Shown: positions 883 to 56,760 of the stretch, piece by piece
Position numbering within the stretch: position 1 is the first letter of the stretch
Layout of the letters: every line of letters begins with the position of its first letter
Program-made: the position numbers and the translations under genes
Notes under the pieces: model-generated
The model's database searches: none
The model's input: the letters and a program-made list of their open reading frames with translations, nothing else
What the model was told of the DNA's origin: nothing
IMG/VR virus record: IMGVR_UViG_3300037067_008087
Span: 18,397 to 82,396 of that record
Direction: 5' to 3' (one strand)
DNA from: a virus
Taxonomy: Duplodnaviria > Caudoviricetes
Length of the DNA: 64,000 nucleotides

Positions 883-918
883 TAAAATATTATTAACATT
901 GTAGTAAATTTTAACATT

Positions 919-4610: not shown

Positions 4611-4614
4611 GAAT

Positions 4615-20717: not shown

Positions 20718-20720
20718 GGC

Positions 20721-22007: not shown

Positions 22008-22023
22008 GTTTTTATGTGTTGTT

Positions 22024-22380: not shown

Positions 22381-22812
22381 TTACCACCATATTTCAAGGT
22401 TACCATCTGTTACGCTATTCCACACTATTGTTATAGCTAGAATATCCCCTCGCCACTGTATGTCTGTTAACACTATCGCATTAGTGGTATATGCCACTGT
22501 AGCATAGTTAGCGGTATATGTTAATGTTGCATCCGCAGTATTTAAAGTGTATGGATTCCCGGATACATCAATCTTATAATTAGCATGATGATCATCCCTG
22601 CCATACCCGATAGTGGCGACAGCATCATTAGCATTAAAACTAGTGAAGTCCATTATCACAAGGCTCACATCTTGCTTGCTACCCATGTTTATAAAAAATG
22701 TGGTAGTATCTTGTGAATAATAATCTGCGGCATCATAAGTCCTTCTTAGGCGTTGGGCACTGATATCTACCGCAAGTAGCGACAACAGTAGGAAAAATAT
22801 TGTTTTTTTCAT
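22381..22812 (-). CDS. Small secreted beta-rich protein
   Basis: MKKTIFFLLLSLLAVDISA-Q signal peptide; TAACTTTG box at 22830..22837. Confidence 0.65.
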   Translation of the reverse strand: MKKTIFFLLLSLLAVDISAQRLRRTYDAADYYSQDTTTFFINMGSKQDVSLVIMDFTSFNANDAVATIGYGRDDHHANYKIDVSGNPYTLNTADATLTYTANYATVAYTTNAIVLTDIQWRGDILAITIVWNSVTDGNLEIWW

Positions 22813-33161: not shown

Positions 33162-36100
33162 TTATGGACTTGGGGTTGACACTATTGTTACATTTCTTAT
33201 GTGAGCTGCAACATTATCATCATTCTCAAGTTTACAGACTATCGTATTGCCCCTTAATTTTCTTCCCTGAAATAAGTCTATATGCCTTGTTATCCCAGTT
33301 GTTGTTGTTATGTCATACAGGAACTTAGCATGGAACTCCCCTTTTCTGCGCCTGAATCTTCGAGCCTTAAGCCTTGAATACATACGCATATATCTTCTTG
33401 TATAATCCTTGGTGCTGATAAATTCTATATCATCATCATTAACTACTATGGAATCATTGTCTGGCATATCCCAGATAACATTAGAGTTCTCATAAATAGC
33501 AAGGAACATTTTTTCATCTGATGGGTATTCGTTTCCCACAACCCAAATCTCTGATCCGTAATCAGTCCCGTAGAAGTTACCATAATCAGCGGCCGTACTA
33601 TCGTGATAATACAGATAACCATCCTTTATGGATATAAAACGAATATCCTCTATACTAGCATACATTTCAGGAATAAAAGAATAGAAACTCAGCCACCTGT
33701 TTGACGGCTCATGGAATCCTATTGTTTCACTATTGGCAGATGTAAGGTTATCTATAAAGGTTAGATAGTACATTTTCTTGTACGAATCAAAACCAGCTCT
33801 TACTAATATATTTTCTTTACCACTACCGAGAAGTGTTTCTGCTTTAGGTCTGAAATAATTCTTCATCTTATACCGGCTTATATCTTCCGTGCCATTGTAT
33901 GCTGTTCTCCATACAATACCAGATTGCATGTCAAACCCATAAATATAATTACCGTTAAAGACTATTGATTTCTTATCACTAGACCCATATGGTTCACTTC
34001 TTGGGCGGATAGAGCCTATTACACTATCTGTGTATGAAACAGTTGATTGCCCATCAGCGCCCATAGCCATCTCAGCCCCAAGATATGCAGAACTTATCTT
34101 GCTTTCCTGTATTATATTAAGCACATCTCCAGTTAATCCTATTCTTGTTATTCTACCGTAAATATCAGGAACGCTTATTTCATTATCAAAGTCTATAGTA
34201 CTTAATCCATTAACTCTTGTGTTTGGTAAAAAAACATTACTCCATAGTATATTATTTAACCTAATCTGCCTTGCATCTGGATTTGCAATGTGTGGACGCC
34301 CAATATTCTTAATCTTAGAATCGAAATAATTTGAATGGCTTTCTGATTCCATATAACAAACTATAGGTTTATCCGCATCAAATGTAAAATGTTGGCATAT
34401 CGTAAACTCCATCTCGTCTATGTAACATATAGCAGACTGTAATGCGCTTTGGCTTCTTACAGGCACTCCATACTCAGAAGATTGTGTAACTGAATGATAT
34501 GGGCTATCGGAACCCGGATTTGATATGGGGAATTTATACGGGGTTTCATAATAAATACCGGGCTTGTCTTGCTTTATTGGAGTATATAATTCAATTAAAA
34601 CATAGTCAGCCGCATCTATATTGGTAGCCGAAGTGTTGCCGCTATAATCTGGGACTACTAAATATTCATTATAATCCCCACCAAGGCCTTGTATTTCATA
34701 ATCAAGATAATCACTTAAAAGAGTTACTTGAGGCCTAACCTCACTCCCGTCAACAACAGCAGAGCCAAGTGTACCTATCCATCTTATCCTATCGCCCTTA
34801 GTGAATTGATAGGTCATATTAAAATTAGGATTATTGTCCTTTGCTTGAAACATTAAATCATCATGTTTAATATACAAAAGGCCATCTTCCCTTTTAAAAT
34901 CACTTACCTTAACAAGTGTTTTAGTATATGATTGAATATTAGTAAGTCCATAAAACACTCCCCAGTAGTGAGCCCACTTGGGCGGATCATTAGATATTTC
35001 TAGTTGTACTATATCAAAATATTCATTTGTAGTATGGGTTGACTGCTCACAATAATGACTAAGATAGACGCCGTCTGTTTCATTTACAAACCCCATTCTT
35101 CCAAACTGGTCATAATATACAATACCGAGCCAATGTTTAGCCCCGTTTTTCATTGTGCCTAACTTGACATAAAAACTATAATTAACAGAATACCCACCTA
35201 TCCAAGTACCTGCTTGATGTACTATATCTACATACCCACTAACATTATATGTCGCAGATACTATATTACCATCAATTGGAATTATTTTATTTGTGATATA
35301 ATCAGCTAATGTTGTTATTTCCGAAAGATTTATAATATGCTTCTGTAGTGATGTCTCTATAACAAAATAGTTAGTAGTCCCAGAAATAAAATATAGTCGT
35401 TTTGTTGTTGCGTTAACTGTTGCAGCCGGGTAGTATGAACACCCATCCCAAGCGGCTGATGCATAATCAGACCGAGGAGAAGAAGATGTGATATGTGTTA
35501 ATGTTACATCTACATCCACATTAGGATAACCCATGGTATTGTCGGCAAGTAATATTCTATTATCTGGCAAACATAGTATATCCCCGGATTTTACCGGCAC
35601 ATTATCATATAGTTTATTTACAATAGAATCATCCAACACCTCAACAATAGTGCTCCCATCAAACCTACAATATTCATCAGCCACATCAATGGTCGCATAT
35701 AATTTCCAATGGTCAAGAATAGAGTTCCTATATGCAAACTCCACTTTACTTACCGTATTTAAGCCGACATCATCAAGTTTGGGTAGGTGTCCGAATTTAT
35801 TTATTCCTGTATATAGTGATCCGTCCGGGCTTTCGTTATATGAATCCCCAATCCGGCTAATAGTTGACCATGCTGATTTTTCGTTATCATCAAAAATATA
35901 TCGAGCGATAAAATGACAAGGCCTTTTTATTATATCTACATTAGATTCATTTTCAGAAGACAGACCTGATATGGTATTTTCAATAATATCTGGTTGTGGT
36001 TTAATATAGCTTAATGTAAAGTTTCTATGTGTGTCCGAAGAATGGACGCTATACTGATCGCCGTAATAATCATAAGCCGTGTTGATTGCCTTATTAACAT

Positions 36101-36944
36101 TCAGTTTCATTATCGGATTAATACCATCAGTCCAATACAACATCTTGTCATCGCCATCCCCGATTACAGTAGCCATGACGGGATTATATTTATTCCATTT
36201 AGCAATAGTGGATGGGATACTAAGACTTGTGCTATTCAAAACCTCCGATAATCCCTCATTATATTTATAAACAGTTATAATATTATCAGACCATGGGGAT
36301 ACGCTACCATTAGAATCATAAGACCAAAAACAATAAAGCTCATTATCTTTAGCATAATAATATTCACCAACAATATCTTTATATGTGAAATAATTATTAT
36401 AAGTACCGTGATCACCATAAATAAATCCTAACCTTTGAGCCCCGTTTGTTTCAGATGTGTCCAGAATAGATACAATAATTTCACTTGTTAATGCTGATTG
36501 TGTTGATGTAACTGAATATATAAAATTATCCCCAAGCCCAGTTATTTTACCTGTTATACTAGATAGCGCACTAACCAAAGTGGTAAAATCAGAATGTTTA
36601 TGATATATTTTGTGCCTTCCATTATCAGTCTCTATATTTATAATAACCCCGGCAGTGTCGTAAGTCCCTTCGTTATATAAACAATAATTAGCTATATTCA
36701 AGCTATATATTTTCCTAGCCGGGGAAGTCCCGTTCGTTGGTGTTGGTTCGTATTGTCCACCTAAGGGGTCTATAATATTTTTAATTAATGAATTACCTAA
36801 TGTCTTAGTGTAGATACCACCCCTTTCACTTTTATCCAAAGAAATATTTAAACGATACTTCCCATCGCCCTTAGGCATAACAGAAAGATCATCATCCCAG
36901 TTTAATCCAGTACCAGTAACAAGTGGTATTCTATCAATTATCAT
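33162..36944 (-). CDS. Tail muzzle/stabilisation protein (crAss-like; P22 gp10-like role)
   Basis: 1260 aa, beta-rich; N-terminal GLNWDDD...KGDGKYRLN and C-terminal WLSFYSFIPEMY...YYHD, as I recall for tail stabilisation proteins; follows the ring-protein genes. Confidence 0.7.
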   Translation of the reverse strand: MIIDRIPLVTGTGLNWDDDLSVMPKGDGKYRLNISLDKSERGGIYTKTLGNSLIKNIIDPLGGQYEPTPTNGTSPARKIYSLNIANYCLYNEGTYDTAGVIINIETDNGRHKIYHKHSDFTTLVSALSSITGKITGLGDNFIYSVTSTQSALTSEIIVSILDTSETNGAQRLGFIYGDHGTYNNYFTYKDIVGEYYYAKDNELYCFWSYDSNGSVSPWSDNIITVYKYNEGLSEVLNSTSLSIPSTIAKWNKYNPVMATVIGDGDDKMLYWTDGINPIMKLNVNKAINTAYDYYGDQYSVHSSDTHRNFTLSYIKPQPDIIENTISGLSSENESNVDIIKRPCHFIARYIFDDNEKSAWSTISRIGDSYNESPDGSLYTGINKFGHLPKLDDVGLNTVSKVEFAYRNSILDHWKLYATIDVADEYCRFDGSTIVEVLDDSIVNKLYDNVPVKSGDILCLPDNRILLADNTMGYPNVDVDVTLTHITSSSPRSDYASAAWDGCSYYPAATVNATTKRLYFISGTTNYFVIETSLQKHIINLSEITTLADYITNKIIPIDGNIVSATYNVSGYVDIVHQAGTWIGGYSVNYSFYVKLGTMKNGAKHWLGIVYYDQFGRMGFVNETDGVYLSHYCEQSTHTTNEYFDIVQLEISNDPPKWAHYWGVFYGLTNIQSYTKTLVKVSDFKREDGLLYIKHDDLMFQAKDNNPNFNMTYQFTKGDRIRWIGTLGSAVVDGSEVRPQVTLLSDYLDYEIQGLGGDYNEYLVVPDYSGNTSATNIDAADYVLIELYTPIKQDKPGIYYETPYKFPISNPGSDSPYHSVTQSSEYGVPVRSQSALQSAICYIDEMEFTICQHFTFDADKPIVCYMESESHSNYFDSKIKNIGRPHIANPDARQIRLNNILWSNVFLPNTRVNGLSTIDFDNEISVPDIYGRITRIGLTGDVLNIIQESKISSAYLGAEMAMGADGQSTVSYTDSVIGSIRPRSEPYGSSDKKSIVFNGNYIYGFDMQSGIVWRTAYNGTEDISRYKMKNYFRPKAETLLGSGKENILVRAGFDSYKKMYYLTFIDNLTSANSETIGFHEPSNRWLSFYSFIPEMYASIEDIRFISIKDGYLYYHDSTAADYGNFYGTDYGSEIWVVGNEYPSDEKMFLAIYENSNVIWDMPDNDSIVVNDDDIEFISTKDYTRRYMRMYSRLKARRFRRRKGEFHAKFLYDITTTTGITRHIDLFQGRKLRGNTIVCKLENDDNVAAHIRNVTIVSTPSP

Positions 36945-37672
36945 CTCTTAGGCGTTAAATAAAACGTGCTTCTTATCATATCCATGAACTCATCATGAGA
37001 CGGAGCTTCTAAACTAACGAGCTCTGTGAGCGCTGCGCTATATACATTAAGCAACTCCTGTCTCCTACTCATCGGATAGTTATCATCAAACTTATAAAAC
37101 TCATAAAGAATATGAGCAATAAGGGCTGGTATATATTTATTAGGGATATAATTCTCTGTAGATATGTTAGTGCCTGATGTTTTATAAACAAGAACAAGTG
37201 TGGTTGATGTTGTGTTGCGTACATGTATCTTTTCTGCATCCCAATCTACAACATAATATCCATCTGTGTTAACTCCGCCCGGGGCATAATACCCGGGGCT
37301 TACTGGACTATTAACATCTTCACCTTCCTCATAATCTGTGTCTAAAGACTCAACACCACCTGTTTCTGTGATTGTATGAGTAATACTATCCCTGCGGGTT
37401 AGTGGAACTAACTCACCTGCTGCGGGCTGGTACAATCCTATAAAATCCTCCATTTCTTCGGGGAATGATATGTAATCAAGGCTGTTTAAAGTAACTTTCC
37501 TCCACATCTTCCCTTCCCATACATAGTTGAGTCTTAGTTTCCTATACCCATCAATAGCCATTTCCAGAAATGGGAAATAATAACTTCTTGGTTTCTTAGC
37601 CTGCCATAAAGCCTTCTTAACTACTTCATGTAAGGTTTGTACGCGATCCGTATGTTGTTGTACATCACTCAT
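36941..37672 (-). CDS. Tail ring/tubular protein
   Basis: 243 aa; one of four similar-sized genes between the MCP and the muzzle. Confidence 0.55.
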   Translation of the reverse strand: MSDVQQHTDRVQTLHEVVKKALWQAKKPRSYYFPFLEMAIDGYRKLRLNYVWEGKMWRKVTLNSLDYISFPEEMEDFIGLYQPAAGELVPLTRRDSITHTITETGGVESLDTDYEEGEDVNSPVSPGYYAPGGVNTDGYYVVDWDAEKIHVRNTTSTTLVLVYKTSGTNISTENYIPNKYIPALIAHILYEFYKFDDNYPMSRRQELLNVYSAALTELVSLEAPSHDEFMDMIRSTFYLTPKR

Positions 37673-43833: not shown

Positions 43834-46227
43834 TTATGACATCTGCGGCTGTGCTTCTCCTCCCTGAATTGAGTTCTCTGCCTGTAGCATACTAACATCC
43901 GCGCCACTCTGCGCCATTACTTTAGCTATTATCTCATCTATCGTGTTTTTTGATTTATTATTATCTATCAGCATTTGCGATCTAGTCTTAAGATCATATT
44001 CTACAGCCATACCTTGTTGCTTCATCTGCTCAATCTGTTTAGCAGTCTGATTCTGTAGCTGAACGGTCTGTTGGTTAATCTGCCCCTGTCTGTCAATGGC
44101 TTCCATCTTTTCTTTATGCAACCTCTGTCTGTCTTTCTCTACCATCTTCTTAAGAACAGACCTTATCTCACTGATATTACAACCTGCAAATATCTGTTCC
44201 TTGACATACATAGCCTGATCAGGAGTTAGTCCCGGCTGCCCATTTCTTCCATTCTCTAAAGCCAAGTCAACCATCTGTGAAAGAGTTTGTCTTTCCGCCA
44301 TGCTCGGTCTAGCCCTTAATGTTATACCCATTTGTATAGGAAGGAGGGTGGAATCTGCTATAACTGATATATTAGCCTTGCCTATAACCTTTTCATATTC
44401 AGCTTTGCCTATGTCATCATATTTAATTATGCACTGTACCATTGTAGAACTTACCTCAGCCAGCTGTTCTTTTAGCTTCTTAGAACAATCTAATACAGGG
44501 CGTAGTGAAGCCTGAGCGCTTTGTAATGACATCTCGCTAACGCCTACAGCCGTATCTGTCTTGGGAGTGGCGCCTATCATGAGAAGGGGTATGCCGGTTA
44601 GGTTCTCGGCGAACTGAACACACCACTGGAGCCATTGCATATAAGGCTCAACCAACTCCCTGATATTACCCGGGACATACTGAATAGGGACTGGGTTCCC
44701 GGCAACGCCCATACCATTTATCCCTGTTGTCTTATAGAAAAAGAAATTACCCTCTATAAAGCCTTTTATTACATTAAGTGGATTAAATTTCTTTGGGTCA
44801 TTCATCATCAATCTGGTCACGTCTACGGCATAACCACCTTCAGTAGCCTTGCCTATGCCATTCATTAAACGCACCCATGAAATGTGGAACACGTCAGCTA
44901 CCATCTTTAACCTATGAACAATAGCCTTTGTATCCCCTATTAACTTAACGCCTTGCACTGGGAATATAGGGTCTTTACCCACAATACCCTGATTAGGATA
45001 TAAGCCATAATTATATACCCATTTAGAGCCCACTAACCAACTGCACCTGTAAAGCCTTCTTCTCCTTATATTCCTTACCTGTTCTCTATCACCTAACTTC
45101 TCTATGCCTTCTTCTGGCATATCATATATTCTTGTTTTACCGTTTTTCTTAGTGTAAACTATTTCTTTTTTATTATCTACATCCCGCCAATACCCATGGA
45201 GTTCCAAAACTTTATAACTGCCGTAATCAATATTCTGTCTTTTGGCATCACTGAATGAGGACGGCAACTCCGGATTGCCGAACATCCCCTTGTAATCCTT
45301 GGCTAGTTCATATATTTCTTCTTCTGTTATACCCGTTTTCTCGCCATCGCTCATCATGTGTGATTTAGCCCTAAGCTCTGTAAGTGTAGTCCATTTCAGA
45401 TAACCCCCAAAATCCACATCTGAAAAATCTTCTTCATTTGAATACTGCATTATAACATTCTTAGGGTCTATGTACTCCCATTTAACTTTATGTGTTGCGT
45501 CATCATATTTAACATGAGAAAATGCATATCCAAATGTTAATAAATCCCTCTTGGCTTTGGGGTGTATGTTGTTATCCCATTTCGAAAACGCTTCTGTGTG
45601 TGATAATAATTGTTCGTGGCTTCTTATGTATGGCTCTTTAAATAACCCATCTTTTTTGAATTGTTCTAGTTCCTCAAAGTCAGTAGATAAAACAGGTGCC
45701 TCCTCCATGGGTATTCCCGCCTGTTGAGCCATGGCGGCCAATAATGGGGCAAACTTATTTTTAACATAAGTCTGGTGCATTAATTTGTCTTCCTCATATC
45801 CAGAATCATAATCAATGGGGTCTGCCTTTATCTCGTAGTCATTGTCAGATATAGTCCCCTCTATGGCAGATAAGAGTGTCGGGATAAAAGACACAACATC
45901 ACCAACATCAAGATTAAGCCACCCTTTTTTATGGTAGTCTTTAGCTGTCATGGTGTTATCAGTGTCCCCAGTGCTTGATGCACTTACTGATGCAAAATAA
46001 GTTTTATATTTATCGGTATTCTGTTTGCCGGCGGCATACGCCCTTAACTCATCAATAACATCCACAAACTCAGCTGTTATCTCAGTACGCTCTCTAACAT
46101 ACATTGAATATAGCCACTCTACGATTTGCCTGTTATAGCTTGCTGATTGCTTTTCTTTTTCTGTTTTGCTCTCCATTTCAGGTAATGAAACGGAGTTATA
46201 TTTACTAGCAAATGGGGTTACTGCCAT
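43834..46227 (-). CDS. Portal protein (crAss-like)
   Basis: About 797 aa after TerL with a Q/M-rich C-terminal barrel region. Start moved to the ATG at 46227, which follows the 29 bp promoter/leader shared with 33113..33141. Confidence 0.8.
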   Translation of the reverse strand: MAVTPFASKYNSVSLPEMESKTEKEKQSASYNRQIVEWLYSMYVRERTEITAEFVDVIDELRAYAAGKQNTDKYKTYFASVSASSTGDTDNTMTAKDYHKKGWLNLDVGDVVSFIPTLLSAIEGTISDNDYEIKADPIDYDSGYEEDKLMHQTYVKNKFAPLLAAMAQQAGIPMEEAPVLSTDFEELEQFKKDGLFKEPYIRSHEQLLSHTEAFSKWDNNIHPKAKRDLLTFGYAFSHVKYDDATHKVKWEYIDPKNVIMQYSNEEDFSDVDFGGYLKWTTLTELRAKSHMMSDGEKTGITEEEIYELAKDYKGMFGNPELPSSFSDAKRQNIDYGSYKVLELHGYWRDVDNKKEIVYTKKNGKTRIYDMPEEGIEKLGDREQVRNIRRRRLYRCSWLVGSKWVYNYGLYPNQGIVGKDPIFPVQGVKLIGDTKAIVHRLKMVADVFHISWVRLMNGIGKATEGGYAVDVTRLMMNDPKKFNPLNVIKGFIEGNFFFYKTTGINGMGVAGNPVPIQYVPGNIRELVEPYMQWLQWCVQFAENLTGIPLLMIGATPKTDTAVGVSEMSLQSAQASLRPVLDCSKKLKEQLAEVSSTMVQCIIKYDDIGKAEYEKVIGKANISVIADSTLLPIQMGITLRARPSMAERQTLSQMVDLALENGRNGQPGLTPDQAMYVKEQIFAGCNISEIRSVLKKMVEKDRQRLHKEKMEAIDRQGQINQQTVQLQNQTAKQIEQMKQQGMAVEYDLKTRSQMLIDNNKSKNTIDEIIAKVMAQSGADVSMLQAENSIQGGEAQPQMS

Positions 46228-46250
46228 TGTTATATTTTTTACAAAGTTAC
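46222..46250 (-). promoter_or_regulatory. Late promoter/leader, identical 29 bp copy 2
   Basis: Exact match to 33113..33141, including TAACTTTG and ATGGCA. Confidence 0.75.
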
Positions 46251-46273
46251 ATAGAGTTGACAATATGGTTCTA

Positions 46274-47560
46274 GTGAACTACCCACCCACGCCAAAGGCG
46301 ATGGGATGGGCTTCATGGGTCAAAGCTCCTTCCAACGAAGGCAACGTACCATGATTTTTAAGTGTATGTTCCGTACACAATTTATTTAATGCGAAATTTT
46401 TAATATTTATGGAAGCGTTTAAATCTCTAGATAGAACAGAACCGCACTCAGGGCAAGCCCATTCACGGTCTTTGAGTGTAAGTTCTTTGTTGATATATCC
46501 GCACTCCGAACATGTTTTAGAGCTGGGTTCAAATCTGCCTATACGAAGGATGTTTACTCCATTACACTTTGCCTTATATTCTAACATGGTAACAAACATT
46601 CCCCAGCTTGCATCTGAAATTGAGCCAGCTAAACAATGGTTTTTTACCATGCCTTTAATGTTCAAGTCTTCCAAAGCAATAGATTGGTTATCTCTTATTA
46701 ACTCTGTACTGACTTTATGTAAAAAGTCTTTTCTTTGGTTGGCTACTTTTTCATGTAGCAAAGCAACCTTATATTTACGCTTCGTTCCTTTATGTTTGGA
46801 ATATTGGCGTTGGTTATATTTTAGTTTATTTTGTGCTTTACGCAAATACTTTGGATTATCATATTCCTTACCGTTAGAAGCAACTAAGTATGATTTAATC
46901 CCCAAGTCTACGCCAACAGTCGTTTCTTCTTTTATTGGTTGTAGTTGTTTTTCGGTTTCACCCGTTTCACAAAGAATAGAAACGAAGTATTTACAAGTTG
47001 GTGTTCTGCTGATTGTTGCTTGTTTAATATCTCCCTTAATGGGTCTGTGTAATACAATATCAATTCCTTTCTTAAACTTAGGCATAATCAGTTTATTGGT
47101 ATCAATCTTAACACTTTGTGGAATATTGAAAGACTGCTTGCCATTACCTTTTTTCTTAAACCTAGGGAAATCAGCGCGGCCTTTAAAAAAGTTTTCAAAG
47201 GCAGTATTCATATTTACAATAGACTGTTGTAAGGATTGGCTGTTAACTTCTTTCAGCCATTCATTTTCTTTCTTTAAATCAGGAAGTCGCTTAACAAGAC
47301 TTACCCACGAATGGTTTGTTTTGTCTTTAGCGTATTCAGATTGTTTAAAAGCCAAAGCATTATTATACACAAAACGAGCGCAACCAATATGCTTATTGAT
47401 TAACTCGGCTTGGGGCGCCGTTGGATATATTCTATATCGAAACGCTTTTAACATATTGCAAATATACAAAATTTATTTATATTGGTTTTTCTGTATAAGA
47501 TTATTTAACCAGCCTTACATCCAACCGACTAAAGATCGGGTTGGTTTTACGGCACTAAGA
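46274..47560 (-). mobile_element. Non-autonomous IS200/IS605-family (IS1341-like, tnpB-only) element
   Basis: Left end: TTAT|TCTTAGTGCCGT-AAAA-CCAACCCGATCTTTAGTCGGTTGG hairpin. Right end: GAAG-CCCATCCCATCGCCTTTGGCGTGGGTGGG-TAGT-TCAC|. The guide/cleavage pairs AAAA/TTAT and GAAG/TCAC follow the IS608 rule (AAAG/TTAC, GAAT/TCAA). No tnpA in the window. Confidence 0.85.
46279..47454 (-). CDS. tnpB: RNA-guided endonuclease TnpB
   Basis: HTH_OrfB N-terminus (MLKAFRYRIYP...GCARFVYN), RuvC-I GVDLG, RuvC-II ALEDL, Zn finger CSECG/CPECG, RuvC-III RDLNAS. All three catalytic residues are present. Confidence 0.95.
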   Translation of the reverse strand: MLKAFRYRIYPTAPQAELINKHIGCARFVYNNALAFKQSEYAKDKTNHSWVSLVKRLPDLKKENEWLKEVNSQSLQQSIVNMNTAFENFFKGRADFPRFKKKGNGKQSFNIPQSVKIDTNKLIMPKFKKGIDIVLHRPIKGDIKQATISRTPTCKYFVSILCETGETEKQLQPIKEETTVGVDLGIKSYLVASNGKEYDNPKYLRKAQNKLKYNQRQYSKHKGTKRKYKVALLHEKVANQRKDFLHKVSTELIRDNQSIALEDLNIKGMVKNHCLAGSISDASWGMFVTMLEYKAKCNGVNILRIGRFEPSSKTCSECGYINKELTLKDREWACPECGSVLSRDLNASINIKNFALNKLCTEHTLKNHGTLPSLEGALTHEAHPIAFGVGG

Positions 47561-49915
47561 ATAAGCATATGATGGATTAGAGTAAAACTTATCCCAATTA
47601 AATTCGTGGTTTTGTATTGCTGTTTCGGTTGTCCCGAATGCACTTTTAGCGCCTAATAAAGCCCACCCACACGCAGCGAACCTATCGTGGTTTGTCATAT
47701 CATCAAGGCCTTTTATTATCCTAACATCCTGAAGGAACTCTATATGTTTTTCTTTCTCGGCTCTTCTTGATACATAATCTCTAACCTCAAGGAACAGCCT
47801 CTCTTTATTCTTCTCCCCGGCATAAAATCCGGGTTTCTTATTGAATGTCCCGTCTGGGTTTTGTTGATATTTAAGATAACCCCCATATCCATTATCCACG
47901 AAATACTGCCAAAGGTCGTCTTTATTACGCTCAAACGCCAACATAGCACCATACAAATGGCACATCTTTAGCATATCAGAGCAGTATTCATCAAGACTTG
48001 GTGTACGGTTAAGATACGTACACACAAACCTACCAGAATCAGCATCCCTTATATCCTGACTACTTTCTATTGATGGATCATAATTCCAATAAACAGCCCC
48101 ACCACCATCTGAAAGTTTAGACCGATAAATCCTTTTACCCGTTTCACCTATCCCTCCGTAAGCAAATGAGTCGGCTCCTGCGGTAAAAGTTAATAAGTTA
48201 AGTGGCATACGTTGATTCTCAAACTGTTGTTTCTTTTCATTCCATATACTTGCACCATAAGTCCATAGATTATATTGAGACTCAAATCTTTCTATATCAC
48301 TCATCATAAATCTACCCGAATCCCTTCTTATAATAACAACCCTTGAAAACGGAACCCCATTCTCCCAGTCTAAATCACAGGCTTCAACCATTGGGTCTAC
48401 TTGTTGCCTGCGTTTTAATATAGCTATACACTTATCTAATAATGGATAATCAAACCCTAAATCCCCAGACCTACCAGCCCACATATCGGCTGACTTAAGG
48501 GGGTTTTTCTTTATTTTTAAATAGTACAGTTTCTGATCCTCAGGACGCCCGCTTGCAAGTAATGGTAATATATCCCTTTCTAAATATTCCTTAGCCCCTA
48601 TACCTAGTCTATTGTAAACAGCATGCGGTGGGGCAAACTGCATCTGTCTCTTGTTTGGTTTCTCAATAACACTCTGCCCCCAAGCATCTACAAACCCGTC
48701 ATGCCCATCCCATGAGTGAATCCATAGCCGCCTAACCCCACTCTTGGTTTGTCCATTTACCGGATTCCTAACATAGTAATTAGAGCTCCACCATTCAGAC
48801 TCGTATTCTGCCCCATTCTCTATGTCTTCTACTGTGGATGGGTGTTCTGAATATCCATGGATGATAGGGCCTTGGGATAATGTTAGTTTATTAACCTCCC
48901 ATCTATTTGTAATATCACTTCTTACGGCTCCCTTCCCCTTCTCATCCTCAAGAAGCCCATACAGCTGCCTAGAGTCATTTGCCCTTTCAGATGATGAGTC
49001 GGTGAACCCTATTACGCTATCAAGGAAATCATCATAATAAACATTCCCCGGGGGGCGTAACATTATACGCAATGTGTCAAAGCTTCCCTCCCATAACGGC
49101 ATTAACCATACGGGATATTCCCGTATAGCGGGGATTAACTTTTCAGTGAACATCTTTTTTGAGTGGTCTCCGGTGTCTGAAACTATAGTGCTATTAGCTC
49201 CACGCCTATAAAAAGAAATGTCTATGAGTTTATTTAAAGCCCTATTAGTATCCCCCCTTCTTCTTCTTTTGGGGTTCTGCACTCCATAAGAAGTCCTTAT
49301 ACCTATATCCTTGGGGATGAAATTACCATCTTTATCAACAATAGCGTTCCAGTTTTCATCCACCTCGAAAGTACCTGTATCTGTATAATTATGCAGCCCC
49401 CACAACTCTATCCTTCTATCAACATCCCTATATTCAGGACGTTCACCCGTGGGGAATATCCAGAAATTAAGATACCTGAAATGCCATGGGGTTATGTAAG
49501 TTGGCTTACCATCATTATAAAACCAATATCCATACCGTAAATGCCAATGCACTTTCTTAATGAACTTAATCTCTTCCTGATAAGAGTCAAATTCCTGTTC
49601 AAGAACCCTCCAGAACTCTTTCTGCCACCTATAGCCGTTAGGCTTCTCCCTGTTATTCCCGGTGTAGTCATTAATCAACACCTCTAAACACCTGCGTTCT
49701 AATGCTTTTAATCTTGGGGGGATAACCATCCTTCTGAACTTCTGGTCAGCCGGGAGCATACCATAGCCATCTATGTACTCAAGGGCGGGAGGGTCTGGCA
49801 GTCTTAATACTACAGGAATGAGGTCTTTATCTCCATCATTGAATACAACGTATTTATCATGAGGTTTATATTCTAACCCGGTTCTTTTAGACATCGGGTG
49901 TGGAGTGCCCAACAT
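47555..49915 (-). CDS. terL: Terminase large subunit
   Basis: Walker A-like PKRRRRGDT, Walker B LLEDEKG, nuclease motifs AGADSF, FERN and HDRF; directly upstream of the portal once the IS is ignored. Confidence 0.85.
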   Translation of the reverse strand: MLGTPHPMSKRTGLEYKPHDKYVVFNDGDKDLIPVVLRLPDPPALEYIDGYGMLPADQKFRRMVIPPRLKALERRCLEVLINDYTGNNREKPNGYRWQKEFWRVLEQEFDSYQEEIKFIKKVHWHLRYGYWFYNDGKPTYITPWHFRYLNFWIFPTGERPEYRDVDRRIELWGLHNYTDTGTFEVDENWNAIVDKDGNFIPKDIGIRTSYGVQNPKRRRRGDTNRALNKLIDISFYRRGANSTIVSDTGDHSKKMFTEKLIPAIREYPVWLMPLWEGSFDTLRIMLRPPGNVYYDDFLDSVIGFTDSSSERANDSRQLYGLLEDEKGKGAVRSDITNRWEVNKLTLSQGPIIHGYSEHPSTVEDIENGAEYESEWWSSNYYVRNPVNGQTKSGVRRLWIHSWDGHDGFVDAWGQSVIEKPNKRQMQFAPPHAVYNRLGIGAKEYLERDILPLLASGRPEDQKLYYLKIKKNPLKSADMWAGRSGDLGFDYPLLDKCIAILKRRQQVDPMVEACDLDWENGVPFSRVVIIRRDSGRFMMSDIERFESQYNLWTYGASIWNEKKQQFENQRMPLNLLTFTAGADSFAYGGIGETGKRIYRSKLSDGGGAVYWNYDPSIESSQDIRDADSGRFVCTYLNRTPSLDEYCSDMLKMCHLYGAMLAFERNKDDLWQYFVDNGYGGYLKYQQNPDGTFNKKPGFYAGEKNKERLFLEVRDYVSRRAEKEKHIEFLQDVRIIKGLDDMTNHDRFAACGWALLGAKSAFGTTETAIQNHEFNWDKFYSNPSYAYS

Positions 49916-50582: not shown

Positions 50583-50825
50583 TTATTTCTTCATTTTAAG
50601 GAAACCAAAAGTAATGCCCTCTATTACAGAATCCTTTACTAATATCAAGCCGTATCCTAAAAGGAACATAGGGATAATTTCAGTACCCACCTTAAACTGT
50701 ATTGGTGTTTTATGTATAACATCCACTATGTTGGCATAAATCATAAACAAAGTAAATGCCATTATCGGCACACCCAATGCTGTTGTTACGACATTTTTCC
50801 ATATTCTATCTTTTGTGTCGCCCAT
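50583..50825 (-). CDS. Two-TM membrane protein, holin-like
   Basis: 80 aa with two hydrophobic segments and a basic C-terminus (FLKMKK). Confidence 0.5.
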   Translation of the reverse strand: MGDTKDRIWKNVVTTALGVPIMAFTLFMIYANIVDVIHKTPIQFKVGTEIIPMFLLGYGLILVKDSVIEGITFGFLKMKK

Positions 50826-50831
50826 AATATT

Positions 50832-53800
50832 TTAGTTAAACGTTACCGTCATCTGAAACCCTGTCCCCACCTGTCCATTTCGGTCGCTCTCGAATATCAC
50901 GTACATATACCTACCGGTTGAACTACATGAATTACCAACCGTTGGGAAGTTGGTTGTCAGTGCGCTTCCGTGCCGTCCTATAAGAGTTGATCCCGCCACG
51001 TTGCCGTCATAAATCTTTACTATGTCGTATTGCACGGTTGTACTGTTATCCAAGTCCATTGCATTGACGGTAAGGGTGACTGTATTCCCTGCACCGGCAT
51101 CAATTAACCATGCTTCGGTAACTTGTTCACTGTAATTACTGCCATATTCGCTGTTAGTAAAAGTCTGTTCAGTGGTAATGAGTGTCTGGTATTGGTATGT
51201 CTCTCCCGTGATCGGATAGGGCACGTCAAGTGTGCCTTCAACTAACCCCACAATTGGTGTTTCCGGTGTCCATAAAACAATGTTATCCCAATATACGTGG
51301 GTATCTTCATCTTGGCGATATTCGTCAGAGGCGCCCCCTTGAAAGTATGTAAATTCAAGAATATCTATAAGGTTATTCATGAGGGTAGCGTCCTCATAAA
51401 AGCGGTAATTGCTATATTGATAAATTGGTATGTCGTTATAAAATATCTCTATTATGCCGTCTGAGTTGGCTGCCGATGAATTCATTTCAGCATGAATCGT
51501 AAGTTTATACCACACCCCCGGTAGGAAGTAATTTGTATTAGTTCCGAAACTCGGATAATTGATATTATTGCCGTAGCCAGTTGGCCAATGGTTATAATAG
51601 TAGTGCGAAAGCTGTCCGCCCATGAGAAATTGAGGCACAACATAAAATCCTTCATCTTCGCCGGGCTCCTCAAGCAAAAAATTCCAAGGAGTTCCTTTAA
51701 TCCCGAAATTCTTGCCCCCTCCGGAAGACGACCAGTTGGTTAAATCGTCATCCCCATACTTTATGTCCATTGATATCCATATATCGCTGTACCCTGATCC
51801 GTTATTAAGAGGATAATCCCAGAAATATAACTGGCTATATGTTTCTGCTGGATATGTTAACTGTAGTGCCTTGTTCGAAACATCACCATTCATTGATTCA
51901 GTAACGATATTTAGCTTATCCTCATGCCCGGAGTCAATATAAGCTGTTGAACCCGAAAAATAACTCTCTATTTCCGCTTCGGTAAATTGACCTAAAGTCT
52001 GATCTTCAAAGTTCCAATACTCCAATATTTCAAAGTCAGCAAGTGGGTCAACTATTGTTAATTCCTCCCATGTTACGTTAGATATATAAAATGTAGAACT
52101 TGATCCCCCTATGTCAAACGTTATCTTTGCACTATAATGGTCTACATCTGAATAGTATTGAGAATAAACTCTTGTTGTGCCACTATTGTCTACATTATAT
52201 TCTTCTCTATAAAACATACGGGTTCCCGCCTTAGCTAACAAATAATTTCTATTGCTAGCAGATCGTATTGTATAACTTAAACGATATATTTTGCCCTGCA
52301 CCAAATCCACAGTATGTCCAATTCTAATATCTGTAGTGCTTGATCCGGGTGTGTTAACCGTTACCACTAACTCACCACCAGAATAACTTAATGATGCCTC
52401 TGCCGTGGGAGTTGTGCCATCGCTATCAAAACACCCCCAGTTATCTGTAGAACTAGCAAAGTTAGATTGGTAAATAACAGTTGAATCAAATGCCACCGGG
52501 GTTGGATATGGATCAACGAACAGCGCTTGCTCAACCTCCTCCATATAATCCCCATCTGTAAAAACACCAAAGTCCGCATCAAAATCCCATATACACCAAG
52601 ACCACCCCTTCGACTCAAACCAACGGGACAGGAAATTAAAATAAGGGGCACGGGCCGTTGTGTCGTCTGCTAACGTATATACACCAAACTCACCTATATG
52701 TATCGGTACATTATTGTTAGCAGCCCTAAATTCATCCACATAAGCAAAATCTCCAATTATAACATCCATAAAAGGTTGAATAGCATACCACGGAGTACCA
52801 CACCATGTTTCAGATAAATACCCCCCACCCGGCAACTCTAATCCCCATGCTGCACATTGATGTGTTAGTGTGCGGGGATCATAATAATGTAAAGAAACTA
52901 TAAGCCTATCGTCATCCGGTAATACGAGATATGGCAAACCCTTTACGCCCGCCCAATAGCCGGGAGATAACATTATATATTTATCGGTATCATAAGCCCT
53001 TATGGAATCTACCGCACGAGCAGCAAGGTCGTTCCATTGAGTTAGTGTTAGATCATAATGTGGTTCATTGACTAGTTCATATACAACTTCCGTTGTGTCA
53101 TAAGAGCTTAACGTGCTTGCTATCTGTGTCCAATGGGAAAGATATTCATTTATATTATCTGATGTATAACTTACCGTCCATGCTGGTGAATGATAGTCAA
53201 TAAGAGCCACCATGCCTCTTGACACACAACTATCAACCATATCAGTTAAATACCCCAATACAGATTCATTTATAACATTACCAGCCCCGTTATCAGCAAA
53301 TCCATATAAAACCAACCTAACATGATTAAAATGTTCAGCAAGACCATCCCATTCTGTCTTTGTGTAGTTAGGGACAAGATTAGAATTACTTACAACCCCG
53401 TATGCGTTAGCCCCACGCCCCAACATTTGTACCACTGTTGTGTCGTCATACTCTGGAGTTGGAGCTACATATGAGTAGGTAGGATCATAAGCAGCTCCAT
53501 TATAATAAGGGATATATTGCACCCCACCCCTATTTAAAACATATTGAGTAGGGTTGTATCCGACAGGAGGAGTACCTTCATCATATAAAATAAAATTAGT
53601 AGCCCCATTGTCATATAATGAATCAATCTGAGAATCACTAAGGGCATAATCATAATATTGAAAATTATCAATATTCCCCCCAAACGAACTATAACTTGTT
53701 GGTGTAAAATTACCCATAGTTAAAGTACCAGTAAGACTAATAGGGTCTGACATTACTGAATCAGATGTCTGATCTGTCCCGTTTATAAATATTCTTCCAT

Positions 53801-54263
53801 AACCCAAGTCTTCATTATACTTAATAAAAACAACATGAGTCCACTCCCCATAAGTGTAAACAGCATTACCCGTCAAGGCATCATTATCTCCATAAGCATC
53901 CCTAAAGTGTATATTACGATTAGCACAGTCCATATATGCCTTTAACTCATTAATCCCAAATGTAAAAAGATAAGGATATCCTGATGTTTTGCTTGTTTTA
54001 AACCACATGGAAATAGCATAGCCGCTTCCTGTATTAAGATTTGTGGTTGATGTGGCTGTTACATGATGCTGTAATCCATCACCAAAAACAACAGAATGTG
54101 TTGGTTCCTCGTATGTTGCACTACTGTATGTTATCCCTGACGACGTAAAGGTATAATTACCCATACTATCGGTAGCAGCATTATTGAAAAATACCGCCAT
54201 CCGTGGTTGTTGTCCTAAAACAGTTGCGCTTAATATAGATAATACAATGATTAAATATCTCAT
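50832..54263 (-). CDS. Signal-peptide-bearing multidomain CAZyme: LamG + GH5 + CBM-like + PL14-like + CUB
   Basis: MRYLIIVLSILSATVLG-Q; LamG (ISMWFK, WTHVV, IDNFQYYDYALS); GH5 (NHVRL, IDYH, ELVNEPH, LHYY, IGEFG, WCIWD); GGGKNFG; CUB (YDIVKIYDG...STGRYMYVIFESD...GF). Confidence 0.8.
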   Translation of the reverse strand: MRYLIIVLSILSATVLGQQPRMAVFFNNAATDSMGNYTFTSSGITYSSATYEEPTHSVVFGDGLQHHVTATSTTNLNTGSGYAISMWFKTSKTSGYPYLFTFGINELKAYMDCANRNIHFRDAYGDNDALTGNAVYTYGEWTHVVFIKYNEDLGYGRIFINGTDQTSDSVMSDPISLTGTLTMGNFTPTSYSSFGGNIDNFQYYDYALSDSQIDSLYDNGATNFILYDEGTPPVGYNPTQYVLNRGGVQYIPYYNGAAYDPTYSYVAPTPEYDDTTVVQMLGRGANAYGVVSNSNLVPNYTKTEWDGLAEHFNHVRLVLYGFADNGAGNVINESVLGYLTDMVDSCVSRGMVALIDYHSPAWTVSYTSDNINEYLSHWTQIASTLSSYDTTEVVYELVNEPHYDLTLTQWNDLAARAVDSIRAYDTDKYIMLSPGYWAGVKGLPYLVLPDDDRLIVSLHYYDPRTLTHQCAAWGLELPGGGYLSETWCGTPWYAIQPFMDVIIGDFAYVDEFRAANNNVPIHIGEFGVYTLADDTTARAPYFNFLSRWFESKGWSWCIWDFDADFGVFTDGDYMEEVEQALFVDPYPTPVAFDSTVIYQSNFASSTDNWGCFDSDGTTPTAEASLSYSGGELVVTVNTPGSSTTDIRIGHTVDLVQGKIYRLSYTIRSASNRNYLLAKAGTRMFYREEYNVDNSGTTRVYSQYYSDVDHYSAKITFDIGGSSSTFYISNVTWEELTIVDPLADFEILEYWNFEDQTLGQFTEAEIESYFSGSTAYIDSGHEDKLNIVTESMNGDVSNKALQLTYPAETYSQLYFWDYPLNNGSGYSDIWISMDIKYGDDDLTNWSSSGGGKNFGIKGTPWNFLLEEPGEDEGFYVVPQFLMGGQLSHYYYNHWPTGYGNNINYPSFGTNTNYFLPGVWYKLTIHAEMNSSAANSDGIIEIFYNDIPIYQYSNYRFYEDATLMNNLIDILEFTYFQGGASDEYRQDEDTHVYWDNIVLWTPETPIVGLVEGTLDVPYPITGETYQYQTLITTEQTFTNSEYGSNYSEQVTEAWLIDAGAGNTVTLTVNAMDLDNSTTVQYDIVKIYDGNVAGSTLIGRHGSALTTNFPTVGNSCSSTGRYMYVIFESDRNGQVGTGFQMTVTFN

Positions 54264-55720
54264 TCCCTTCTTTTTGTTTTCTTCTCTAATTTATCTATCC
54301 GCTTCTCAAGTTCCTCCTGCTTCCTCTCAACTGCTGCTATGTTTCTAAGATTTAATTCTATAGCAGCCTGTAGTGCTTGTAAATATTCCATTGGATTAAG
54401 TGATGTGGGTACAAATGTTGATTTTACATTCCCGTCTTTATCGGTATAAAACCATTCTACCTCCCCTTTCTTTTGGTCTTTTAGCCTTTCCTGAGCTGTT
54501 TTAAGATTCAATTTTAAAGCAAATGCTGCTGCCGCTAATGATCCACTATCAATACCACCCCTATATCCAGTGCCAACAAGCCAAAACAAGTCATCCCCAC
54601 CAGACAGATAACCTAATACTAATGTATCAGCTACGTGTAATTCATCACCTACATCTAAGGAATCGTCTATAACCATATTACCTACAAACCTTGATGTATC
54701 TGCTGCATATACACCACCTGCTGCTGTTGTGCTGAACCCCGTACTTGAGAATGCAGTTCCCCACAAAGTGCCATCGTAATTAAGCCTTGTGGTATTTGTG
54801 GGGGCTGTTGTACCTGTGTAGAAATAACCAGATGTCTTTGTTGTTCCACTTGTATTTAACACACTAGACCTGATATCAGATGATAAATAAATATTAGTAG
54901 AGTAAAGGCTTCCATTATAATTTAATCTTGTAGTAGATGAAGGGTTTGTTGTTCCATTATCAAAATACCCGGCAGTTGATGTTGTCCCGCTTGTATTTAA
55001 GACGGAACTATTAATATCGGTAATTGACGTAAGTTTGTATGCATGCAGATTCCCACCAAAATTCATCCTATTAGTGGAGTTTGGGTCTGTGGTTCCAGTA
55101 TAGAACGCCCCAGATGTTCGTGTTGATCCTGTAAACTGGAAATCAGAAGTCCCTTCTATTGCAGAAGAACTAGTCCATACTGCCACATAGCCATCTGCCG
55201 GAGTTCCCGTTACGGTAACATCACCAGTTCCACTCCCTCCCTCTAGTGCTATAATTCTTGTGTTATGGGATTGCAAGGTGTCTGTATGCAGGTCTATTGA
55301 ATCCTGTAAAGAAACCAACCCAGCTGCATTTGTATTTATCCTTGTGTTGTGTAATTGCAGTGTATCTGTGTGAATATCAATAGAGTCTTGTTTTGATTCA
55401 ATGCTAGTTAGGTTTGTGTTTATCCTAGTGTTATGCAACTGTAATGTATCTGTATGGGCATCAATGGAGTCCTGCAAACTTCCTATCCCACTTGGGACAG
55501 AACTGTCTACATATTTCTTAACAGCATATTCTGTTGGTATAGCACTAGAATCAGTGTCTGTTAGCGTGGTGTCATTAGACAGGCTTTTAACCCACAACGT
55601 CCAGTCATCGCTTTTAAACGACAGGCTGTCAGCCCGAGCCCCTCCTATCTTGGGCTGTACTTGGCACATTGCAAACAGGGGTATGATAACAAGGATTGAT
55701 AAAATAATATATCTTTTCAT
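54260..55720 (-). CDS. Trimeric tail-fibre-like protein with an N-terminal signal peptide
   Basis: Real start MKRYIILSILVIIPLFAMC-Q at 55720. Three QDSIDxHTDTLQxHNTRI coiled-coil repeats, three GTTxP..T.RxNxxG repeats, and a C-terminal coiled coil like those ending fibre chaperone domains. Confidence 0.7.
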   Translation of the reverse strand: MKRYIILSILVIIPLFAMCQVQPKIGGARADSLSFKSDDWTLWVKSLSNDTTLTDTDSSAIPTEYAVKKYVDSSVPSGIGSLQDSIDAHTDTLQLHNTRINTNLTSIESKQDSIDIHTDTLQLHNTRINTNAAGLVSLQDSIDLHTDTLQSHNTRIIALEGGSGTGDVTVTGTPADGYVAVWTSSSAIEGTSDFQFTGSTRTSGAFYTGTTDPNSTNRMNFGGNLHAYKLTSITDINSSVLNTSGTTSTAGYFDNGTTNPSSTTRLNYNGSLYSTNIYLSSDIRSSVLNTSGTTKTSGYFYTGTTAPTNTTRLNYDGTLWGTAFSSTGFSTTAAGGVYAADTSRFVGNMVIDDSLDVGDELHVADTLVLGYLSGGDDLFWLVGTGYRGGIDSGSLAAAAFALKLNLKTAQERLKDQKKGEVEWFYTDKDGNVKSTFVPTSLNPMEYLQALQAAIELNLRNIAAVERKQEELEKRIDKLEKKTKRRE

Positions 55721-55730
55721 AATAATAAAT

Positions 55731-56195
55731 TTATACAAGGAGTGCGCGATAATCAATAAATCCATCATCCGCAACCTCGATTGTGAAACCTGCCGTTGTT
55801 TTGTCATAGAATTTATAACTTAAGAAATCCCCATTTGCATCATAAGAAGTTATAAATAATGCGTAATCAGCTGAGGATAATGATATTGGGAATGTAATGG
55901 TGTTTTCGCCAGCTGTTACAGCGACAGCCTTTGCGCTAGCAGCTTCAGATTCAAGCCCGGAAATAATTAAAGTGGGGGCTGTAAGTGTTGTTTCATAGAG
56001 TTCTTCAAGTGCATCAAGTGCTGTAGTCATATTAGCAGAGCTATTTTCCATAGCCCCCAAACAATAAAGAGCTATCAGCTTAGCACTTTTTGTTTCTATT
56101 ATAGCCTTTTGAGCCACTGTCCTGTATATCTTGCTTGAAAGAGCATCTAGGTATTCTTCATAAGATGCGTAGGCTGTTGAATGAACTGTTGCCAT
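55731..56195 (-). CDS. Putative tail-fibre adaptor/structural protein (no signal peptide)
   Basis: 154 aa; helical N-half and a beta C-half (NTITFPISLSSADY...KTTAGFTI) resembling fibre C-terminal modules; heads the fibre operon. Confidence 0.45.
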   Translation of the reverse strand: MATVHSTAYASYEEYLDALSSKIYRTVAQKAIIETKSAKLIALYCLGAMENSSANMTTALDALEELYETTLTAPTLIISGLESEAASAKAVAVTAGENTITFPISLSSADYALFITSYDANGDFLSYKFYDKTTAGFTIEVADDGFIDYRALLV

Positions 56196-56208: not shown

Positions 56209-56239
56209 CAAATTTACGGAATCTGCTGATAATGGTTTT
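56209..56239 (-). promoter_or_regulatory. Promoter with an extended conserved upstream element
   Basis: 26/31 identical to 39682..39712 with the same spacing. Confidence 0.6.
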
Positions 56240-56265
56240 TATATAGATGTTGTATAAAACAACAT

Positions 56266-56760
56266 TTAAGCAATAAACCATTTTCGTAATTGCTTTTTGA
56301 AAAAATCAAAATCATTTCTTATTATGTCGTTTGATACGCGGCGAACCCTATAACCCAATGCCTCAATCTTTGCGTCTCGTATTTTGTCTTTTAATAAACC
56401 ATCATCTGTGTAATGTTGGCATCCGTCAACTTCTAAAATAATTCTACTGTCTGGAAAATAAAAGTCTGCAATGTAAAATTTCCTTGGGTTGATAAATATA
56501 GACTTTTGAAATTTGTGTTTAACACCAATAGATGAAAGGTATTGTTCTACCATAATTTCTTCCGGTATCGCCCCCATCCTTAAATCTTCTTCATATTGCT
56601 TAGCTATATTTTGTTTTTTATTAACTTTCTTTTTGCGCCTCTTTTTATGTTTGGTTACTTTATAGCAACCCATTCTCTTTCGCATTTCGGCATCCTCAAC
56701 CTCCATACGTTTTTTTAACCAATTAGTTTTACCCCTCCACTCTAAAGTCATAAAATACAA
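56266..56760 (-). CDS. DUF559 (Vsr-like) endonuclease
   Basis: FYIADFYF, LEVDGCQH, RDAKIEALGYRVRRVSN. Confidence 0.85.
   Translation of the reverse strand: MYFMTLEWRGKTNWLKKRMEVEDAEMRKRMGCYKVTKHKKRRKKKVNKKQNIAKQYEEDLRMGAIPEEIMVEQYLSSIGVKHKFQKSIFINPRKFYIADFYFPDSRIILEVDGCQHYTDDGLLKDKIRDAKIEALGYRVRRVSNDIIRNDFDFFKKQLRKWFIA

Follow-up and report, generated by a model that had tools for sequence, protein, structure and literature searches.

A predicted Sec-exported, sequon-rich, fibre-like protein encoded by a phage of Bacteroidota

RESULTS

A Gene for a Fibre-like Protein with a Signal Peptide

We analyzed a 64,000-nucleotide stretch of DNA (the window), positions 18,397 to 82,396 of IMGVR_UViG_3300037067_008087, an 82.4-kb virus record in IMG/VR, and focused on one gene within it, which occupies 54260..55720 on the minus strand, stop codon included. 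Its 486-aa product, called P0001 here, is a fibre-like protein that begins with a signal peptide and holds an excess of a bacterial O-glycosylation sequon. The start Met was chosen because the full-length homologues share it, all beginning at the MK(K/R) of the signal peptide, and because a longer open reading frame (ORF), from 55807, overlaps the upstream gene.

Behind the signal peptide, P0001 is a mosaic of five modules, all encoded on the minus strand. The predicted signal peptide (residues 1-19, MKRYIILSILVIIPLFAMC; 55664..55720), with cleavage by signal peptidase I (SPI) expected before Q20, is followed by an N-domain (residues 20-78; 55487..55663), a coiled-coil shaft of three 28-residue units (residues 79-161; 55238..55486), a junction (residues 162-195, GSGTGDVTVTGTPADGYVAVWTSSSAIEGTSDFQ; 55136..55237), three repeats of about 45 residues (residues 196-334; 54719..55135), and a C-domain (residues 345-486; 54263..54688). 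No family in PHROGs, NCBIfam, or Pfam was found for P0001, these searches giving only sub-threshold coiled-coil noise, and a match of the GTGDVTV junction to the MS2 coat protein in a PDB sequence search (E = 0.034) was taken as nonsignificant.

The Export Signal Is Conserved

The signal peptide consists of a basic n-region (MKR), a 12-residue h-region (YIILSILVIIPLF), and a c-region, AMC, that places A at -3 and C at -1. This layout is conserved in 29 aligned relatives, in which four columns are invariant: Q20, D31, S32, and W43. The original prediction, made from the DNA letters, had recognized a signal peptide ending in AMC before Gln, and that feature is indeed present in P0001 and conserved in its relatives. 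It had also left room for lipidation, which now appears unlikely: the residue before Gln varies among S, A, T, and C in the 29 relatives, most of which have replaced the Cys by S, A, or T, while the Gln at +1 never changes. The lack of conservation of the Cys, together with the invariant Gln, favors export by the Sec pathway and cleavage by SPI. A cut between AMC and Q also fits the -3/-1 rule, whereas a cut between FAM and C would place Met at -1, with no lipobox. A Gln at +1 is what the Bacteroidetes Q-rule describes for SPI substrates (PMC5837995).

No NCBIfam or Pfam model of the C-terminal sorting domain of the type IX secretion system (T9SS) matches P0001, whose C terminus is a helix; nor does any envelope-sorting model from these two collections match, and P0001 has no membrane helix. 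Lacking a T9SS sorting domain, a conserved lipobox, and a membrane helix, P0001 should be a soluble protein, with the periplasm as its predicted location.

Sequons Are Enriched, and the Enrichment Follows Export

The tripeptide D-(S/T)-(A/I/L/V/M/T) is the O-glycosylation sequon of Bacteroidota (PMC8550257). An exact count of D-[ST]-[AILVMT] gives ten in P0001, the same number as had been counted originally, at residues 31, 50, 84, 91, 112, 119, 140, 147, 353, and 365. Composition shuffles gave 3.7 ± 1.8 (P = 0.0014). N-x-S/T sequons showed no enrichment in P0001 (9 versus 6.8 expected). Six of the ten are supplied by the three coiled-coil units, and conserved sequons occur in three unrelated modules: D31-S32 in the N-domain (29/29), the coiled-coil units, and D365-[ST]366 in the C-domain (39/42).

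The same excess was seen throughout the family. The 29 relatives hold 310 sequons where 69 were expected, and each member is enriched. The enrichment is also specific to the motif at every position. Among X-[ST]-[AILVMT] only D clearly stands out at the first position, 4.5-fold, the next being C at 1.8-fold on just four occurrences; in D-X-[AILVMT] only S (6.3) and T (3.1) are enriched at the second; and at the third, in D-[ST]-Z, the enrichment is confined to I, L, V, and T. Among 162 proteins, the ratio of observed to expected sequons was 4.08 in the 64 with a signal peptide and 1.30 in the 98 without one, and those proteins scored as lacking a signal peptide that nevertheless had a high ratio were mostly N-terminally truncated members of the family. 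P0024, a protein with a Peptidase_S74 (S74) domain and a typical fibre of the cytoplasmic type, has neither a sequon nor a signal peptide. We read the sequon enrichment as real, specific to the motif, and tied to export, and P0001 as probably O-glycosylated.

An Ancient Coiled-Coil Shaft and a Fibre-Type Repeat

The three copies of QDSIDxHTDTLQxHNTRI noted earlier are all present, spaced exactly 28 residues apart with starts at residues 83, 111, and 139, and each holds two sequons, DSI and DTL. AlphaFold2 (AF2) models residues 79-161 as one continuous helix, with a predicted local distance difference test (pLDDT) score of 82-92 over residues 81-150 and of 73 in the last block. The heptad core, read from the sequence, has Q/T/N/L at a and I/L/I/I at d, and the Ser or Thr of each coiled-coil sequon occupies an exposed c position. 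Profile matches of the coiled coil to EibD and to reovirus sigma-1 were weak (E 0.02-0.06) and were taken as nonsignificant.

Repeat amplification had been proposed as the source of the extra sites. The repeats are present, and the number of units varies from 1 to 12 in relatives, with a spacing of 28 or 21, both heptad multiples. A recent origin is not borne out. The units are 73-91% identical to one another as protein, with the same codon at only 25-50% of their identical residues, and Tandem Repeats Finder reported no DNA-level repeat for them. The low codon sharing and the empty Tandem Repeats Finder result imply that the units are old rather than recent duplications, and what had been called amplification is an ancient, selected state.

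The three GTTxP..T.RxNxxG repeats of the earlier description lie at residues 196-240, 243-287, and 290-334. Their core, G(Y/A)F(Y/D)xGTTxPxxTxRLNYxGxL, takes the forms GAFYTGTTDPNSTNRMNFGGNL, GYFDNGTTNPSSTTRLNYNGSL, and GYFYTGTTAPTNTTRLNYDGTL, and the motif is almost invariant in 40 relatives. Among the relatives with this module are proteins bearing Peptidase_S74, Gp34_trimer, Mtd_N, BppL_N, collagen, BclA_C, or C1q domains, the set on which phage fibres and receptor-binding proteins draw. In the monomer AF2 model the repeat region has low confidence (pLDDT 33-46); interdigitated trimeric shafts usually give low-confidence monomer models, which proves nothing for P0001.

At the other end of the shaft, the N-domain is marked by the invariant D31-S32 sequon and W43 and by the motif IPTEYAVKKYVD. 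AF2 builds it from β strands and one helix (pLDDT 45-77, as block means). It lies directly behind the signal peptide in 32 full-length or near-full-length relatives among those listed. A segment resembling residues 26-74 (W..S.D.TL...SD..IPTE.AVK.YVD) occurs in 18 copies in P0028, a protein of 3644 aa, and also in a dozen other multirepeat proteins without a Pfam family. The stretch that covers the junction (residues 158-212) is common to 51 relatives and is often present in multiple copies in giant proteins.

The C-Domain Represents an Unnamed Family

The C-domain is made of β-hairpins, two short helices, and a 43-residue C-terminal helix. Its AF2 model, built from 34 sequences, has a mean pLDDT of 82.9 and a predicted template modeling (pTM) score of 0.66. 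The terminal coiled coil of the original prediction is modeled as one helix over residues 443-485, ending KKTKRRE (pLDDT 93-98, as 10-residue block means). The family comprises 43 proteins and corresponds to no Pfam family; its most conserved residues are E455 (42/42), E420 (40/42), D365 (39/42), [ST]366 (39/42), and R459 (36/42).

The further proposal, that this C terminus resembles an S74 fibre chaperone, was not borne out by the searches. The Pfam model PF13884, which did match the positive controls P0016 and P0024, failed to match P0001 (E ≤ 0.1) or any of 34 C-domain proteins (E ≤ 0.01), and a six-frame search of the 82-kb record with it gave nothing at E ≤ 10. The catalytic Ser-Lys dyad of S74, in a motif of the S-D-x-R-x-K type at the start of the domain, has no conserved counterpart, no Ser or Lys column reaching 50% in 42 aligned C-domains. 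Foldseek searches of the PDB gave nothing at E ≤ 0.001, and VIA-align and a PDB profile search returned only long helices or generic coiled coils. What was left were weak hints. In BLASTP the C-domain aligns colinearly with the S74 region of P0024, and hhalign places the two in the same register (E = 0.033, probability 1.5%); S74 or "endosialidase chaperone" proteins make up 13 of the top 50 weak matches in BFVD (best E = 0.09, nonsignificant); and S74 clusters are the feature neighbors of the C-domain in ESM-Atlas, with scores of 0.87-0.88 that fall short of the 0.9 line. We treat the C-domain as a family as yet unnamed, which may descend very distantly from S74.

The ends of this family differ. 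In 14 of its 43 members a hydrophobic helix followed by basic residues stands in place of the terminal coiled coil, and a minimal relative, P0116 (159 aa), consists only of a signal peptide, the C-domain, and the membrane helix. Two members have lipoprotein-type signals: P0136 (ending FSC, followed by TPEE) and P0118 (ending FSC, followed by VEDRD). P0136 has a clear C-terminal membrane helix, giving it the topology of a unimolecular spanin; in P0118 the helix is borderline. With its alternative coiled-coil and membrane-helix endings, the 43-member C-domain is a new domain family worth defining.

Relatives Are Phage-Borne and Share a Modular Pattern

With E ≤ 1e-3 as the limit, an exhaustive HMMER search gave 245 proteins, the closest being P0002, 62% identical over the full length. 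Modules were counted over 161 other proteins (162 with P0001), of which 48 have the N-domain, 43 the coiled-coil units, 51 the junction, 61 the repeats, and 38 the C-domain. The N terminus is conserved and the distal modules are swapped, which we recognize as the pattern of receptor-binding fibres. The recurrence of the modules in fibre-type proteins, together with an 83-residue continuous helix with a heptad core, argues for the fibre-like character proposed at the outset.

The homologues lie on phage-like contigs of the same lineage, with a related large terminase (TerL) and a conserved partner gene, and a pattern scan of 185,579 bacterial species genomes gave no relative. These two results together imply that the homologues are phage-borne rather than host surface proteins, the identity that the original prediction had named as a refutation. 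In a tblastn search of 50,697 deposited phage records, neither the whole protein nor its C-domain or repeat region had a match, and IMG/VR pattern scans with P0001, two subfamily alignments, and TerL gave no relatives.

Gene order is conserved as well. A 154-aa ORF followed by a signal-peptide fibre recurs as a pair on the metagenome contigs L002, which has a related TerL, and L003. A third contig, L005, has five consecutive genes for signal-peptide proteins at 649-5773, one of them a homologue of the product of 22381-22812 in the window. The set on L005 also includes an 804-aa β-helix-like protein and a relative of P0001 with a different, β-rich C-terminal knob, and the same contig encodes a tail-anchored coiled-coil protein at 1111-1566.

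Other Exported Proteins of the Phage

P0001 is not the only exported protein predicted in the window. A hydrophobicity screen combined with inspection by eye found five more signal-peptide proteins, encoded at 15907-19974, 19950-20717, 20721-22007, 22381-22812, and 50832-54263, each of fibre, depolymerase, or small type. The four genes at 15907-22812 (minus strand) give products of 1355 aa (Pel9A β-helix, fn3, polysaccharide deacetylase), 255 aa, 428 aa, and 143 aa; the 428-aa protein holds 2.1 sequons per 100 aa. The product of 20721-22007 was considered as a fibre homologous to P0001 and rejected, the two having only a short ALE-GGxGTGxVT junction in common. The six signal-peptide proteins of fibre or depolymerase type take up about 11 kb in summed ORF lengths, and no fibre gene without a signal peptide was recognized in the window.

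Close to this group, 14779-15468 (minus strand) encodes a 229-aa protein in which a single N-terminal membrane helix precedes a coiled coil; its FtsL-like match is weak (E = 3e-5, below the cut-off). The topology, like that of an i-spanin, makes it a candidate for such a protein.

The Transcription Unit

A Bacteroidota-type -7 promoter box, TAAATTTG (56209..56216, minus strand), lies 21 nt before the ATG of the partner gene and is likely to mark the start of the transcription unit; no TAnnTTTG box lies directly before the fibre gene. The partner gene (55731..56195, minus strand) encodes 154 aa, with no signal peptide and a weak match to Gp53-like_C (PF21882, E = 0.015, below the cut-off). Downstream, the stop codon of the fibre gene overlaps the start of the next gene (ATGA), at 50832..54263 on the minus strand, and the two are predicted to be translationally coupled. 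This gene encodes a protein of 1143 aa, with a signal peptide (VLG before QQ) and Laminin_G_3, GH5 cellulase, PL14, and CUB domains, in all appearance a secreted, multidomain, glycan-degrading enzyme in a phage. The unit ends with a gene (50583-50825, minus strand) whose 80-aa product has two hydrophobic helices and matches no family; it is a candidate holin-like protein. A DUF559 endonuclease-like gene (56266-56760, minus strand) immediately precedes the operon, and a hairpin (ATGTTGT...ACAACAT) lies at 56235-56260, between that gene and the TAAATTTG box.

The Phage and Its Host

The structural block of the window includes the genes for TerL (47555-49915) and the portal (43834-46263). The tail module has a match to the SU10 adaptor and a weak crAss-muzzle-like match: in the region 33162-37672 (minus strand), a 1260-aa protein weakly resembles the C-terminal part of the crAss muzzle, and the next gene is the SU10-adaptor homologue. 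The tail is thus crAss- or SU10-like in appearance, yet TerL is closest to those of Cellulophaga phages, being distantly related (about 23%) to Cellulophaga and Flavobacterium phage terminases. Between the genes for the portal and the terminase is one for a TnpB/IS200-605-type transposase (46279-47469, minus strand; phrog_506, E = 1e-124). No integrase was seen in the ORFs scanned, which did not include every ORF. A single ORF of 1426 aa at 7478-11758 (plus strand) has matches to six PHROGs, five of them of glycosyltransferases or methyltransferases and the sixth of unknown function; its product could edit the glycan carried by exported proteins.

Of 59 genes, 13 have a TAnnTTTG box in the 60 nt before them, where 1.9 would be expected by area. 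This enrichment of promoter boxes before genes indicates a Bacteroidota host, as does the signal peptide with Gln at +1, and we take the host of the phage to be a member of the Bacteroidota.

DISCUSSION

A Fibre That May Join the Virion after Export

These results lead us to favor the view that P0001 is a fibre-like protein of a Bacteroidota phage that is exported through Sec and SPI and joins the virion after export. We put a probability of roughly 0.45 on this explanation as a whole, and the same on its last step, that P0001 is a virion fibre joined after export. Its descriptive part, that P0001 is exported, sequon-rich, and fibre-like, we hold with good confidence. The protein is probably trimeric. 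Once in the periplasm, it would be O-glycosylated by the general system of the host. The C-domain, beside the inner membrane, would nucleate and register the trimer from its C-terminal end; in about a third of the relatives a C-terminal membrane helix would tether this domain at the inner membrane. P0001 would act as a host-recognition fibre, meeting particles built in the cytoplasm only when the inner membrane has been opened by the holin, and attaching to them through its conserved N-domain.

Several points weigh against this explanation. Export, glycosylation, and virion association are all predictions. No paper describing a Sec-exported fibre of a tailed phage was found in the literature searched, so the prior is low; nor can virion proteomes help, there being no homologue in deposited phages and no PHROG family. 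The sequon statistics have their own limits. The four sequons of P0001 outside the coiled-coil units are at about chance level, the excess being owed to those units; D-S/T-hydrophobic could be a structural motif of the coiled-coil helix instead of a glycosylation site; and the counts are drawn from homologous proteins and are hence not independent. The product of the partner gene, with no signal peptide, would be in another compartment than P0001. Finally, cleavage would have to free the relatives with a membrane helix before they could join virions, and no cleavage chemistry is visible in them, the Ser-Lys dyad of S74 being absent.

It is possible, if on balance doubtful, that P0001 is instead an exported accessory protein that acts outside the virion. 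It might be a fibre that blocks superinfection, either periplasmic or tethered to the inner membrane, one that covers receptors or debris once the cell has lysed, or a helper in the breakdown of the envelope, working with the cotranscribed GH5/PL14 enzyme and the small membrane protein. Sec export would separate P0001 from the compartment in which virions are assembled, which suits any of these roles, as do the membrane helix in 14 of 43 C-domain relatives, with P0116 as the minimal case; the transcription unit shared with a secreted glycoside hydrolase and an 80-aa membrane protein of two helices; and the absence of a PHROG structural family and of homologues in cultured phages. The modules themselves speak for the virion, being of the receptor-binding fibre type, with a conserved N terminus and swapped distal parts. 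So does the investment of about 11 kb in six signal-peptide proteins in a window where no fibre gene without a signal peptide was recognized. By position, moreover, the genes are late or structural, and the ORFs scanned, though not all of them, held no integrase.

Less probable is a conventional tail fibre whose C terminus is a chaperone of the Peptidase_S74 type, trimerizing the shaft and then cleaving itself off, with a release from the membrane like that of MYRF in the tethered relatives. In the eukaryotic protein MYRF, the ICA (intramolecular chaperone auto-processing) domain trimerizes and cuts the protein off the membrane (PMC3742443, PMC8326128), and the succession of shaft, α/β domain, long helix, and optional membrane helix parallels it. 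The shared BLASTP and hhalign register with P0024 and the BFVD and ESM-Atlas neighbors point the same way. On the other side stand the failure of PF13884 to match 34 C-domain proteins or anything in the phage record, an hhalign probability as low as 1.5%, and structure searches that came back empty or with generic coiled coils; the family also conserves D365, E420, E455, and R459, and no Ser or Lys.

A lipoprotein resembling a spanin, in which Cys-19 would be lipidated after cleavage by signal peptidase II (SPII) and the fibre would bridge the outer and inner membranes at lysis, is very improbable: a Cys does stand immediately before Gln-20, the coiled coil would be periplasmic, P0136 and P0118 have lipoprotein-type signals (P0136 with a clear membrane helix), and a holin-like membrane protein shares the transcription unit, but Met would be at -1 with no lipobox, most of the 29 relatives replace the Cys and keep the Gln, P0001 has no C-terminal membrane helix, its 486 aa are far above the size of known spanins, and a separate i-spanin-type candidate lies at 14779-15468.

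Implications of an Exported Fibre

Assembly of tailed phages, including their fibres, is taken to occur in the cytoplasm. A fibre-type family in which a host-adapted export signal is always present, with sequons selected only when the protein is exported, points either to a new assembly route, in which fibres are matured and glycosylated in the periplasm, or to a new class of phage-secreted, fibre-like effectors. Either option, if true, would call for other ways of predicting and expressing the receptor-binding proteins of Bacteroidota phages, and P0001 would be the first phage structural-type protein to use the general O-glycosylation system of the host.

A broader and more speculative proposal, which we consider unlikely at present, is that a lineage of Bacteroidota podophages makes its receptor-binding fibres as Sec substrates, has them O-glycosylated by the host, and docks them on finished, fibreless particles only after the holin has opened the inner membrane. 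The phage glycosyltransferase cluster would then possibly edit the glycan. If docking of this kind is true, it would amount to a two-compartment assembly route, of which we know of no instance among tailed phages.

Comparison with Known Systems

P0001 has the signal peptide and the Gln at +1 of a Bacteroidota Sec/SPI Q-rule substrate (PMC5837995), and the sequon enrichment in its family follows exactly the residue preferences published for the general O-glycoproteins of this phylum (PMC8550257). It differs from both groups in being phage-encoded and made of tail-fibre modules.

Among those modules, the likeness to S74/ICA phage fibres and tailspikes is one of architecture. P0001 is modular in the same way, shares the GTTxP..TxRLNYxG repeat with the true S74 proteins P0016 and P0024, and likewise has a C-terminal α/β domain that ends in a long helix. 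It departs from them in its lack of a PF13884 match, of the Ser-Lys dyad, and of a match to a solved structure; conversely, the S74-bearing relatives have neither the N-terminal Sec signal nor the sequons of P0001. The tethered C-domain relatives resemble MYRF in the order of shaft, α/β domain, and membrane helix, a functional analogy and not a sign of membership.

The shaft recalls the stalks of reovirus sigma-1 and EibD, long heptad coiled coils with a polar a-layer (Q/T/N). Trimeric autotransporters such as EibD also have an N-terminal signal peptide, but P0001 has no C-terminal β-barrel anchor, and a trimeric autotransporter adhesin was ruled out on that ground. Unimolecular spanins of the phage T1 gp11 type are matched in topology by the relative P0136, and here too the coiled coil would be periplasmic; P0001 itself has neither of their anchors and is several times larger.

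Finally, the phage as a whole resembles the crAss-like and SU10-like podophages of Bacteroidota, in its SU10-adaptor match, its weak crAss-muzzle-like match, and the fibre-type genes that flank its structural block. It is in the fibre that the two part, P0001 differing from the tail fibres of those podophages in having no sequence match to any deposited phage.

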